DNA from: Methanotrichaceae archaeon | Lineage (GTDB): Archaea; Halobacteriota; Methanosarcinia; Methanotrichales; Methanotrichaceae | NCBI GenBank assembly: GCA_963813075.1 | Contig: CAWEXU010000030.1 | Span: 320,001 to 384,000, forward strand | Length of the DNA: 64,000 bases | Direction of reading: 5' to 3' | Shown here: positions 21,254 to 62,570 of the stretch, one piece after another | How the letters are laid out: every line of letters starts with the position of its first letter | How positions within the stretch are numbered: the first letter of the stretch is position 1 | Program-made: the position numbers and the translations under genes | Notes under the pieces: model-generated | What the model was told of the DNA's origin: nothing | Databases searched by the model: none | Seen by the model: the letters and a program-made list of their open reading frames with translations, nothing else

Positions 21254-21327
21254 CGGACCCGCCGGGATTCGAACCCGGGCCCGAGGCTCCGGAGGCCTCT
21301 ATTCTATCCAGACTATACTACGAGTCC
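21254..21327 (-). tRNA. tRNA-Arg (anticodon CCG)
   Basis: Reverse complement folds as cloverleaf: GGACTCG/CGGGTCC acceptor stem, GAGGC-CTCCGGA-GCCTC anticodon arm, GTTCGAATC T-loop. Confidence 0.97.
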
Positions 21328-40925: not shown

Positions 40926-41198
40926 TTGGCTGAGATGAGAAATTTTGCCCTGAGAGACGCCCAGGGAAATGAGATCGGAGTCTTTACTGGAAAATCGCCC
41001 AGGCAAGCGGCACTGAAGGCTGCCAACCGCGGCTACACCGAGATAAAGCTGCGCGAGCGCGGCACCAAGAAGGTCCATGTCTTCTCTGGAGAGAGAGTAC
41101 AGGTGGACAAGCCCAAAGGAGCACCTGCCTGGATGCCGGATAAGATCTGGAAGCCGAAGGTGAAAAAGGAAGGTATTGAGAAGCTGGATGAGGTCTGA
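40926..41198 (+). CDS. chromosomal protein MC1
   Basis: RNFALRD..GVFTGKSPRQAALKAANRG..LRERGTKKVH..PAWMPDKIWKP. Confidence 0.95.
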   Translation: MAEMRNFALRDAQGNEIGVFTGKSPRQAALKAANRGYTEIKLRERGTKKVHVFSGERVQVDKPKGAPAWMPDKIWKPKVKKEGIEKLDEV

Positions 41199-41283: not shown

Positions 41284-42588
41284 CTAGGGCACCAGGCGCC
41301 TTCTATCCCTGGGGAAGATAACTGCATCGCGGATATTGTCCAGATTGAGCATGGTCATCACCAGCCGGGAGAGCCCCAGCCCCCAGCCAGCATGAGGCGG
41401 CATACCATAGCGGAATGCTTTGAGATAGAACTCAAAACCATCCGGGTCCAGACCCTTTTCCTTTATCCTCTCCACCAGAAGATTATAGTCGTGCACCCTC
41501 TGTGCCCCGCTGGCCAGCTCCATACGCGGGTGCATGAGATCGAATCCCCGGCAGATCTGGGGCTCGTCCTCATAGGGCAGAGTATAGTAGGGTTTGATGG
41601 ATGAGGGCCAGTCGATCAGGAAGTAATGCTCTCCTATGCTCTCTCCTAAGAATCTCTCTGTCTCGGTATCCAGGTCGTCGCCCCATTGCATCTTGGCACC
41701 CGCCTTCTCTCCCGCCAGATCCAGAGCCTCGGTATAGGTGATCCTCTTGAAAGGAAGCCGTGGCACCTCCAGCTCCAGGCCCAGGACCTCCAGCTGGCGG
41801 CGGCAGTTCTCTCTTACATAGCTATAGGCCCCGGCCACCCCCTCCTCCAGGATCTCCATCACATCCTTATCATCAGCAAAGCTGATCTCAAGGTCTATGG
41901 AGATGGCCTCATTCAGATGGCGCCTGGTATCATGCTCCTCCGCCCGGAAGATGGGGCCGATCTCATAGACCCGGTCCATGCCTGCTGCCATCAGCATCTG
42001 CTTATAAAGCTGAGGGCTCTGGTTCAAGAATGCCTCCTTCTCAAAGTAGCTGATGGGGAAGAGGTCCGTCCCTCCCTCTGTGGCCGCGGCCACTATCTTG
42101 GGAGTGAAGACCTCGACCAATCCTTTCTTAAAAAAATAATCTCGAAGGCTATGCAGGACCGCACTCTCGATCTCGAAGGCCGCCAGGACACAGGGCCTGC
42201 GAATGTCCATGAACCTGGAGTCCAGGCGGGTGTCCAGCTCACACTCCACCTTCTCAGTGGGATCAAGAGGCAATGGGACCTGGGCAGCACTTAGAACCTG
42301 AATCTCCGCGGGAAGGATCTCATACCCTCGCGGCGCCTTTGGCTCCGCCTTCACATTTCCCCGGACCATCACCACGCTCTCCCGGCTGATGGAGCGCGCC
42401 GTCTTGAAAACATCCTTTCCCAGCAGCTTTTTGACCAGGGTGATTTGAGCCATTCCCTCCCTATCCCTGAGCACCAGGAAGGCTATTCCTCCCAGATCCC
42501 TGATCTCATGGGCAAAGCCCGCCAGCGTGACCTCTTTTCCGTCCAGTTCCGCAGATATTTCGCCTGAATAATGAGTTCTGAGGATCAA
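41284..42588 (-). CDS. aspS: aspartyl-tRNA synthetase
   Basis: [34 protein letters not shown]. Confidence 0.97.
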
Positions 42589-42652
42589 TTCATCTCACGG
42601 CTGCGAGAATGAATTCCTGATATAAAAGCAGTCTGATCAAAACCGCTTTCAA

Positions 42653-42958
42653 GTCAACTATCGCGTCCTGAAGGGCGCGGCTTGCGACTATGCAAAAAGT
42701 CGTGTCGCGTTTGGCCGGTTGACACAAGACTAGCGAAGTCCCGAGGGATCATAGATTTCCCTCTACCCGGGCGACCTGCTTTGCATGGAGATCTTAACGC
42801 CGTTGTTGCCGAATCTTTCCATTCGGCTCAGATCATTCCCTAACAGGAATCATGCCGAGCAAAGCGATTTGTCTTTCATTCACCGTCTTACTCCGGTAGA
42901 TCCGGAGTGCCCTACCTCATAGAGGCGAAAGACTGTTGCCCGACTTCATCGGGGAACT
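42653..42958 (-). ncRNA. putative structured RNA ending in a TnpB reRNA/omegaRNA-like scaffold
   Basis: No ORF of 60 aa or more; many stems; TTAAATA about 25 nt upstream; 3' part parallels the tnpB right-end RNA. Confidence 0.6.
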
Positions 42959-42961
42959 AAG

Positions 42962-42988
42962 CTTACATAGTATGTGATACTATTTAAG
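42962..42988. promoter_or_regulatory. palindrome holding two opposed TATA-like boxes; candidate operator
   Basis: CTTAcATAGTAT-GTG-ATACTATtTAAG, 11 of 12 positions pair. Confidence 0.6.
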
Positions 42989-42992
42989 ACTT

Positions 42993-43172
42993 ATGTTCAC
43001 GAACATACAGTTGAAGGTTGAAACGAGGGATCGCCTGAAATCGATAGGTAAGAAGGGAGAAAGCTATGATGCAATCATTAATAGGATCTTGGATGAGGAA
43101 TCTTGCAAGGAGCACGATTCATCCCACCCTGAAGGGCTGGGGTCTTATCTACCCCTTGAGCCCACGAGATAG
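42993..43172 (+). CDS. small ribbon-helix-helix / antitoxin-like DNA-binding protein (59 aa)
   Basis: MFTNIQLKVETRDRLKSIGKKGESYDAIINRILDE: beta-strand, helix, GESY, helix pattern; below ORF-track cutoff. Confidence 0.75.
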   Translation: MFTNIQLKVETRDRLKSIGKKGESYDAIINRILDEESCKEHDSSHPEGLGSYLPLEPTR

Positions 43173-43286
43173 AGATTCAGCACATATGCCGCCCGTACAG
43201 CCATCTTAAAGTTACATGCAGTAGATATATCTGCTAAGGGAAGGTATATCTGCTAAAGAAATGACAGTCTATCCAGGATTACAGCC

Positions 43287-61348: not shown

Positions 61349-62570
61349 CTCGTGGGGTCAAGGGGTAGAGAAGACCCCAGCCCTTCAGGGTGGGGATGAA
61401 TCGTGCCCCTTGCATAACCACCAAAAACTATAAATTTAATAAAATTATTAACTACCCATTAACATGTACCGCACCATCAAAATAAAGCTAGATCGATCAA
61501 ATGAACTCATCCAAACAGCTCGGCTTTGGAACACCGCCTGCCAGGATGTCATAGACTACGGCTTTGCGGCACATGATTACAACAAGACCAGACTTAACAA
61601 AGCTACATACAAAGACCTCCGAGAAAAGTATTCTACATTGCCTTCCGCCCTCATCCAAACAGCAAGGGATCAAGCCAGCGACATGCTCAAGAGGCTCAAA
61701 TTCGAGACTAAGCCTTTCAAGCATCCTTTCGGAGCAGTTCGATTCGACGTTAGGACCATGAAGGTATTCTTGGAATCGGGATACTGCAAGCTCACAACCA
61801 TTTTTGGGAGACTACGATATGACTTCCAGTTAGCAGACTATTACCAGAAATACGCTACATGGAAAGTCATGAATGCTCAACTCAAGATAACTAAGAATGC
61901 TTGCTACCTCAATGTTCAAGTAGAGCAACCCGATCCAGAAACACTTGTTGGAGATAAGAGGATCGGCGTAGATCTTGGGATCAATAACATAGCAGTATGT
62001 AGCGATAATACGTTCTGGCAATCTGGACCAGTTAAAGCTGTGAAAGGCAAATATCAATATTTGAGATCAAACTTCAGTCCAAAGGCACCCGATCAGCTAA
62101 AAGAAAGCTTCAAGAGCTTTCTGGTCGAGAGAGACGGTTTCAGAAGGACGTGAACCATCAAATCGCAAACTGGATACTATCTAAACCATATGACGTAATC
62201 GCTCTGGAAGATCTAACCCACATCAGGAACGGCAAGAAGAATAAGAAACTTGGAAAATGGAGCTTTGCAGAACTACGAAGCATCATAGAATACAAAGCGG
62301 GCGCTATCGGAAAGAAGGTAGTTGCCATAGACCCAAGATATACTTCTCGCACATGCTCCAAATGTGGATTTCAAAAGAAGGAAAACCGTAATGGTAGGAC
62401 CTTCAAATGCAAAAGCTGTGGCTTCCAGATCGATGCAGACTTGAACGCATCCAGGAACATCGCTACCTTCAGTAGAGCTGACCGTAGCAGGCTGCCTGTC
62501 AACCCGCCAATCGTAGCAGGCTAACTAACCACTAGCTACAAGCCCCATCCTTTAGGGTGGGGTAGTTGAC
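61349..62570 (+). mobile_element. IS200/IS605-family element, tnpB only (IS1341-like)
   Basis: Subterminal hairpins CCCCAGCCCTTCAGGGTGGGG and CCCCATCCTTTAGGGTGGGG; ends TAGTTGAC; no tnpA. Confidence 0.92.
61464..62524 (+). CDS. tnpB: RNA-guided endonuclease TnpB, one missing base near 62070
   Basis: RuvC GVDLG / ALEDL / DADLNAS; zinc finger CSKC..CKSC; restoring one A gives LRSKLQSKGTRSAKRKL..RERRFQKDVNH. Confidence 0.93.

Follow-up and report, generated by a model that had tools for sequence, protein, structure and literature searches.

A non-autonomous IS200/IS605 element of Methanotrichaceae carrying a long structured RNA with an omegaRNA-like 3′ core

We analysed a window of 64,000 nucleotides (nt) of a Methanotrichaceae archaeon (GCA_963813075.1, contig CAWEXU010000030.1, positions 320,001 to 384,000), in which an earlier note had singled out a short minus-strand sequence upstream of the tRNA synthetase gene aspS as a possible guide scaffold for the nuclease TnpB. 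By its sequence, this site is the right end of a non-autonomous IS200/IS605 element of 516 nt (window 42653-43168, minus strand), and the flagged feature is the last 71 nt of the element and the 3′ quarter of a folded RNA of about 310 nt. We think it probable that this RNA is a stand-alone omegaRNA, which a TnpB encoded elsewhere would load in trans to cut the empty site. The earlier note had missed the wider context of the site, a mobile element present in several copies, which brings along a promoter, a DUF7557 gene and about 240 nt of further conserved structure. The features of the element are listed below; families A, B and C are tnpB families of which the genome holds intact genes.

42653..42723, minus strand: omegaRNA 3′ core and transposon right end, with GTCAAC, a covarying stem, the terminal hairpin and the end motif TGAC
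42724..42771, minus strand: 48-nt insertion with a kink-turn-like arm (42763-42749) and a hairpin with a TTCGCTA loop (42737-42731)
42772..42776, minus strand: 5′ strand of the crossing helix, GGTCG, pairing with CGGCC at 42717-42713
42778..42865, minus strand: multibranch domain P3, with GNRA-type loops in relatives, replacing the single hairpin before the pseudoknot of family-A ends
42871..42960, minus strand: 5′ accessory domain with hairpin P1 (42957-42935), three-way junction P2 (42933-42871) and conserved unpaired motifs
42961..42992, both strands: predicted bidirectional promoter, with a putative operator, both read from the sequence
42993..43172, plus strand: DUF7557 mini-gene of 59 residues, divergent from the RNA (PF24434, E-value 1.3e-7)
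43110..43168, minus strand: left end with a subterminal hairpin (about 43123-43143), near-identical to the left ends of family-A tnpB elements
43169..43173, minus strand: target motif beside the left end, the expected target-adjacent motif (TAM) of the empty site; TCTAT here, mostly TTTAT in relatives

Extent, copies and spread of the element

The genome contains three copies of the element with differing flanks. BLAST places the other two copies of the interior on C31 (97% over 520 nt) and C4 (92% over 428 nt, lacking the left end). It also gives three matches of 73 nt at 93%, each of them the end of an intact family-B tnpB gene (395 residues). The same right end recurs at many places in the genome, far beyond chance, and a scan for the hairpin and end pattern gave 18 matches, of which visual inspection shows 16 to be clear ends of this kind. 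In common with the tnpB elements of the genome, the element has subterminal hairpins on the left and right and no terminal inverted repeats. Its interior carries neither tnpA nor tnpB; elsewhere in the genome there are seven matches to Y1 tnpA, six of which are stop-free; one Y1 tnpA gene lies at G000 C4:312559-312912.

The element inserts behind a constant short motif at many different places and does not duplicate its target. The left end is flanked by TTTAT at 41 of 48 distinct sites, where chance would give about 7.5% within the window of about 21 nt in which our script favoured TTAT; with TCTAT at the present site, these flanks agree with the (C/T)TAT target that had been guessed for it. 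The right flanks are variable, with 44 distinct ones among 71 loci.

Among 104 genomes of the family, 18 have DNA matches to the interior and 25 have matches to a covariance model of the 5′ domain (R1), which found nothing in a sample of 76 genomes from other families of the class. Homologues also occur in six viral contigs (L051-L056) and 78 metagenome stretches, and 16 of the 17 named records with the interior motif are Methanothrix, Methanosaeta or Methanotrichaceae. A match in Chloroflexia (L038) has neither element end and was taken as chance. Matches in named records, viral contigs and metagenomes gave 101 motif loci, of which those with enough flank were used to count the ends: the right end is found in 70 of 93, the left end in 72 of 89 and the DUF7557 gene in 31 of 89. 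There is tnpB sequence within five of the 101 loci, always on the opposite strand, and in none on the same strand; outside this set, L177 has a tnpB on the same strand that ends about 0.9 kb upstream. No homologue sits immediately behind a tnpB gene, nor was the 5′ leader seen ahead of an intact one.

Some loci deserve mention in their own right. In the viral contigs L054 and L056 the element interrupts a reversed, family-A-like tnpB fragment, and an element of a second type (see below) lies about 300 nt behind its right end. At L174 (G075) the 3′ core of an RNA copy has been cut off by the end-on insertion of a full tnpB element. A CRISPR spacer (L016:1494-1532, G024) matches the RNA 5′ domain of several copies, some of them viral, exactly over 29 nt. 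A palindromic insert is seen within the left-end hairpin of some elements with or without tnpB (L022, L026, L235, L238, L239 and G000 C13 near 31200).

The omegaRNA-like 3′ core

The case first made for a scaffold was a comparison of two strings, both of which could be located: the minus-strand scaffold ending at 42653, and the end of the tnpB element in the same window (62498-62570, plus strand). The scaffold had been started two bases early, at 42725; its GTCAAC begins at 42723. The stem pairings named in the comparison hold in the sequence. Over the 71-nt core, identity is 66/71 to family B and 57/71 to family C, against 44/71 to family A of the window, which had served as comparator and whose tnpB is frameshifted. 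Because the core is far closer to family B than to family A, the changes observed are mostly differences between families; the two strings are not a copy and its parent. GTCAAC/GTTGAC is retained, as the earlier note said, but it does not vary among 22 aligned homologues and its retention therefore says nothing about pairing.

Among homologues, the GCGAC/GTCGC stem does covary, with changes on both sides in five of eight pairs, as does the terminal hairpin, with six of eight. The element lacks a tnpB of its own, but the genome has intact ones at other places, and RNA contigs, unstranded, cross the right end. The proposed TnpB-type omegaRNA scaffold under selection for RNA structure is thus supported; a TnpB encoded elsewhere would load it, and a special meaning of aspS is not supported. 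Going by sequence and covariation, the 3′ core of the RNA is folded like a TnpB omegaRNA.

Architecture and covariation of the RNA

The RNA extends from about 42960, a start inferred from the TATA box, to 42653 on the minus strand, and consists, in this order, of the hairpin P1, the three-way junction P2, the multibranch domain P3 and the omegaRNA core. For covariation counts, 50 distinct sequences were reduced to 27 by dropping those shorter than 290 nt or more than 95% alike, and the window copy was added (28 in total). In the 5′ domain (26 sequences, leaving out L042 and L088), 94.5% of cells are paired and 17 of 26 pairs have changed on both sides. The corresponding values for the 3′ part are 91.7% and 20 of 38 (22 sequences, leaving out L088 and, for want of a kink-turn arm, L046, L053, L058, L059 and L082). 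Both counts were reached in 0 of 500 shuffles, controls that keep relatedness in and use structures drawn from the same sequences, and both lie far above those of slid registers. RNAalifold, applied to 16 sequences, predicted 84 pairs, 51 of them changed on both sides.

The crossing helix GGTCG/CGGCC is paired in 96% of cells, with two of five pairs changed on both sides; all five pairs form in 24 of 25 parsed homologues, and RNAalifold found it independently. It spans GTCAAC, which can itself pair with the terminal GTTGAC in a helix that is invariant and gives no covariation, so as to form a pseudoknot before the guide. The ends of family-A tnpB elements have the same anchors with a linker of mostly 3 nt, compared to 48 nt in the window RNA. 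The insertion contains a kink-turn-like pattern, which we defined from the K-turn consensus as tandem G-A/A-G pairs with a 3-nt bulge ending in U between two helices; it is present in 16 of 28 sequences versus 1.3% of shuffles, and L7Ae-family genes are present in the genome. The TTCGCTA loop of the insertion could pair with GGTGAA of the 5′ domain, being complementary in 19 of 21 parsed sequences, with weak covariation and a search pattern that fixed one side.

The GNRA and UNCG types make up 38 of 66 predicted tetraloops in the orientation of the element, compared to 1 of 52 in the opposite one. Because of this bias we place the RNA function on the minus strand, despite the better folding z-score of the plus strand (−3.7 versus −2.3). 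That z-score would fit a functional plus-strand RNA, namely an omegaRNA of the HEARO/IscB type with a 5′ guide, as would the one sub-threshold reverse match to HEARO that Rfam returned over four homologous loci, at the right end of one of them (E-value 0.062, 24.7 bits against a cut-off of 83). We nevertheless consider this the least credible of the explanations discussed here: besides the loop bias, the promoter faces the opposite direction, the region of the element has no Rfam match, and no RRXRR (IscB) match was found in the genome, in a search whose control was also silent. Over the window, a tRNA alone reached the Rfam gathering score; four matches near the element were chance.

An origin of the 5′ part from tnpB coding sequence is not supported: when 27 RNAs were searched with a profile built from the 3′ ends of the tnpB loci L228-L257, one matched with an E-value of 0.008 and three more weakly, the reverse search was empty, and R1 scored no tnpB end significantly.

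The pairing could alternatively be kept only by recognition of DNA hairpins by TnpA, the interior being a decaying relic without RNA function. The last 33 nt or so, with the hairpin and end motif, are indeed the part recognized by TnpA in IS200/IS605 elements, according to the accessible text of 10.1101/2023.03.14.532601, and copies in several relatives have decayed. Yet the compensatory changes extend over about 300 nt, far inside the end, the RNA-type loops are strand-specific, the interior bears no convincing likeness to tnpB coding ends, and the RNA is kept in many copies without the DUF7557 gene (present in 31/89). We therefore hold this explanation to be very improbable.

Transcription across the right end

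Part of the window is contained in 20 of 24 listed metatranscriptome runs, and coverage was examined in four of the 24, one from each of four studies. In three of the four, contigs with 0-2 differences bridge the right end (42358-42799, 42300-42836 and 42454-42943), whereas the contig of the fourth (42657-42935) has a junction overlap of just 25 nt. The transcript across the right end that the earlier note had asked for is thus visible as contigs in three runs, but these are unstranded and might come from DNA. They lend weak support to the notion that the former tnpB promoter (see below) would drive transcription past the right end and on into the flank. The bin 42956-42996 is uncovered in all four runs, and two contigs have their ends close to the predicted start, at 42935 and 42943; we did not count this as evidence.

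Guide, target and the aspS neighbourhood

The flank that would serve as guide and the gene behind it are:

42633..42652, minus strand: predicted guide, the right flank, crossed by contigs in three of the four runs
41284..42588, minus strand: aspS, class II tRNA synthetase (PF00152), downstream of the right end and outside the element

The flank TTGAAAGCGGTTTTGATCAG and the TATA-like run before aspS are present as the earlier note describes, but a special role of this neighbourhood is not borne out. The first 14 guide bases lie in a 58-nt local insert around the element (window 42639-42652 and 43169-43212), and the guide has no second target flanked by the motif. The element is absent before aspS in seven of seven relatives aligned (13 loci fetched), and in the closest three the 58 nt are missing as well, and with them the first 14 bases of the guide. 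None of the 104 family genomes gave a match to the left part of the insert, and no exact empty allele of this locus was found. Near-matches to the guide in the genome number 12 for its first 12 nt and 41 for its first 16 nt; for the three type I copies, no guide target in the genome follows TTAT, CTAT, TCAA or TTAC. Five weak target matches for the guides of three other elements were judged to be chance. Since the guide has no motif-flanked match in the genome and is in part local insert, its natural target would be the empty site.

A domesticated guide or promoter that regulates aspS, or a guide directed at host or viral sequence, seems to us highly unlikely. The right end does lie only about 25 nt from the TATA-like run of aspS, and three studies have RNA contigs that extend from the element into aspS, possibly by read-through. 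Against this stand the seven relatives without an element at this place and the three closest without the first 14 guide bases, the lack of a TAM before the flank in the occupied site, the lack of a motif-flanked guide match (in a search of the genome, viral targets not being searched) and the variation of flanks from copy to copy. The position of the window copy before aspS would be incidental, with read-through into aspS a possible consequence. Of the other genes in the window, the chromosomal protein MC1 gene behind aspS (40926-41198, plus strand) and a tRNA gene (21254-21327, minus strand) are ordinary.

TnpB families and the likely partner

The window itself holds one tnpB element:

61349..62570, plus strand: family-A tnpB element, its frame split into 61464-62153 and 62150-62524

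Intact, stop-free family-A copies of 353 residues are located on C5 (27507-28565) and C9, and family-A TnpB has the D/E/D catalytic motifs by inspection; another copy, on C27, is internally deleted. Intact genes of families B and C lie at C13:111861-113045 and on C30 near 284600-285700. Family A has its left end, TTTAT flank and core anchors in common with the small element; over 85 nt, the left ends of this element and of the family-A element in the window agree at 89%. Of the 17 genomes that match the RNA strongly, 9 also have family A, compared to 7 of 87 others. From these features, the partner TnpB would most likely belong to family A.

Several observations weigh against an RNA that guides such a TnpB. 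Family B is enriched as well (5/17 versus 6/87), the related genomes are not independent, and differences in element load or in the quality of assemblies may lie behind the enrichment. The partner is uncertain also because the 3′ core most resembles family B, whose sites end in TCAA, whereas the left end is that of family A with TTTAT. In four of the 17 genomes with strong RNA, which are draft assemblies, the thresholds applied gave no match to family A, B or C. The 48-nt insertion sits inside the pseudoknot region gripped by TnpB and could block loading; 12 of 28 sequences lack its kink-turn arm or have it in altered form, and the flanking helix is only 73% paired. Many copies in relatives are truncated or internally deleted, and the window copy departs from the consensus in its TCTAT flank, a GTTA loop and two mismatches in the terminal hairpin. 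The RNA evidence, finally, consists of assembled contigs with neither strand nor ends, for which DNA is not excluded.

Some of these points would suit a functional RNA without a cutting guide, either a decoy or inhibitor of TnpB or a scaffold for another protein, with the core kept for binding. Additional structure makes up roughly three quarters of the RNA and is no less tightly conserved than the core, the insertion splits the pseudoknot region, left end and core point to different TnpB families, and copies occur in viral contigs, twice within a reversed tnpB fragment. On the other hand, a guide requires a variable flank directly beside an intact scaffold end, and here the end motif, the terminal hairpin and the crossing helices are all preserved next to such a flank. 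TnpB can also trim 5′ RNA (PMC10278001, accessible text). In addition, at L270 (G050) a related 5′ junction domain is joined directly to an unexpanded, family-B-like end. We find a decoy or scaffold unlikely.

L270 may be an intermediate or a recombinant; because it joins the 5′ junction domain to a family-B-like end, this domain behaves as a module. A second tnpB-less family follows TCAA (G000 C5:147125 and C6:63104, that is L271 and L258, with homologues L259-L268) and has matches in 12 of 104 family genomes. Its RNA of about 300 nt shares the junction motifs and a crossing helix, a kinship that rests on motifs read by eye, as R1 scores this second RNA type of the genome only at an E-value of 1.1. 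Its right end appears in RNA contigs as loose ends. Further tnpB-less elements combine other long interiors with the same kind of right end (G000 C29:4500-4957, that is L227, and L221, L267 and L269).

DUF7557, promoter and ancestry

The DUF7557 protein has relatives mostly of 43-56 residues, the frame of the window copy running on through the left end; 24 homologues of the gene were found. Its model shows two helices after an extended N-terminus (pLDDT 76), while prediction from the single sequence was poor. Matches to its fold are weak (all E-values at least 1.5), the best including SeqA, NikR, Reg576, TacA2 and ParD2; the best sequence match to a solved structure has an E-value of 0.11, that to PF02697 one of 0.011, below the cut-off, and the dimer prediction scored 0.33 where 0.42 is the mark. 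DUF7557 is a putative ribbon-helix-helix (RHH) repressor, a class with which the predicted fold is compatible. In the family, most DUF7557 matches are unlinked to these ends (20 of 30 loci examined). In L183-L212, longer DUF7557 proteins precede genes of about 90 residues, which we take to resemble RelE/ParE-type toxins. DUF7557 would therewith span antitoxins and element-borne members.

Between this gene and the RNA, the TATA-like TTAAATA at 42987-42981 (minus strand) faces the RNA, and a TATA-like run at about 42963-42969 (plus strand), one base off the other two copies, faces DUF7557. An inverted repeat of the 7-3-7 form (42967-42983) is a candidate repressor site, which may partly reflect the two facing TATA boxes. 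A near-identical promoter precedes the tnpB frame in L206, L214, L215 and L217, from two genomes. These four loci have the left end, a close DUF7557 homologue and a divergent tnpB that begins where the window RNA begins, from which we infer an ancestor with a cassette of small repressor gene and tnpB, the latter since replaced by an RNA gene. A tnpB-less element with a DUF7557 gene and the same promoter is found at L221.

Comparison with known systems

The names PATE and RHH and the analogy to SINEs are used here as background. PATE-like IS200/IS605 elements that encode an omegaRNA would need TnpB in trans from other elements, and their retention is ascribed to cutting of the donor joint (10.1101/2023.03.14.532601, as far as its accessible text goes). 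Like the window element, they have both ends and an omegaRNA but no transposase or nuclease. They are described there without protein genes, however, whereas the window family often keeps DUF7557 and a bidirectional archaeal promoter, and the accessible text mentions no counterpart to the additional 240 nt or so of covarying structure. The window element would work like a PATE, yet it is not gene-less (DUF7557 in 31/89 loci).

The demonstrated cases of stand-alone omegaRNAs are reportedly of the IscB type with a 5′ guide, unlike the window RNA, which is TnpB-type and archaeal, with a 3′ guide and added domains. Stand-alone omegaRNAs are described as mobilised, effector-less loci beside effector loci, working in trans in a role called unknown (PMC10691335, in part); the window element is likewise effector-less in a genome holding effector loci. 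Eukaryotes have a similar plan in the Fanzor ghost loci of Spizellomyces punctatus, which are multi-copy, nuclease-less, about 550 nt long and conserved in their interior, and whose right-end omegaRNA works with the nuclease of full elements (PMC10432273, in part). They differ in their inverted-repeat ends and 75-nt scaffold, and the accessible text mentions neither a structured RNA domain on the 5′ side nor a repressor gene or hairpin ends for TnpA.

For the promoter, the relevant comparison is Arc, an RHH repressor of a bidirectional IS605 promoter that is divergent from tnpB (10.64898/2026.09.24.754181, in part). This layout recurs with DUF7557 in the four tnpB-bearing loci named above. Arc was tested in bacteria, on elements that contain tnpB, and the accessible text has neither DUF7557 nor the word 'non-autonomous'. 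In the window element, regulation would act on the guide RNA itself and not on tnpB; the likeness of DUF7557 to Arc is one of layout.

In the ISDra2 omegaRNA, stem 1 and the pseudoknot cross in the same order as the helices of the window RNA, a likeness of topology only (PMC10097598, in part). Both RNAs use the 3′-terminal bases for the second helix, have a TT(C/T)A loop in the terminal hairpin and take the flank as guide. The ISDra2 RNA, however, lies partly within the tnpB frame and can do without its 5′ part, whereas the window RNA is a separate gene whose 5′ part is conserved by compensatory changes. In the literature we covered, which includes PMC12558985 and few subscription papers, the window RNA is undescribed, as are accessory domains on stand-alone TnpB guides of methanogens and DUF7557 in such elements. 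The principle of a nuclease-less guide element is therefore known, and the added RNA domains appear undescribed.

Proposed mechanism and implications

Under the probable reading, a stand-alone omegaRNA served in trans, the element would be moved to TTTAT sites by a Y1 TnpA made elsewhere; the mobility itself is evident from copies found at many different sites. Transcription from the former tnpB promoter would cross the right end and reach the flank, and the omegaRNA-like 3′ core would then be loaded in trans on the TnpB of a full element, most likely of family A. By analogy with published TnpB systems, the complex would cut the empty site left after excision, and repair from the sister chromosome would restore the element. 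The extra domains, which are under selection, would probably stabilise the RNA or help to capture a TnpB that the element does not encode, and DUF7557 would probably damp the promoter.

A bolder version, which we offer tentatively and think more likely wrong than right, makes the 5′ three-way junction, the kink-turn arm and the long-range pairing an adaptor that captures the TnpB of other elements. The element would then be a SINE-like parasite, possibly with its RNA in a three-part complex that includes L7Ae of the host and with its own repressor in control, that serves both the TTTAT and TTCAA classes and moves between Methanotrichaceae and viruses.

A native TnpB derives its guide from the very mRNA that encodes it (PMC10278001, accessible text), which makes it a puzzle how a nuclease-less element is supplied with TnpB. 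The family offers a clean test, with a defined promoter, separable domains backed by covariation, candidate TnpBs in the same genome, the L270 arrangement and natural deletion variants. If the domains were without effect on in-trans loading or stability, this would be an ordinary PATE-like element with an undescribed RNA motif. If they improve either, they would explain how such a parasite persists and would provide natural scaffold extensions for TnpB tools, which need loading in trans.
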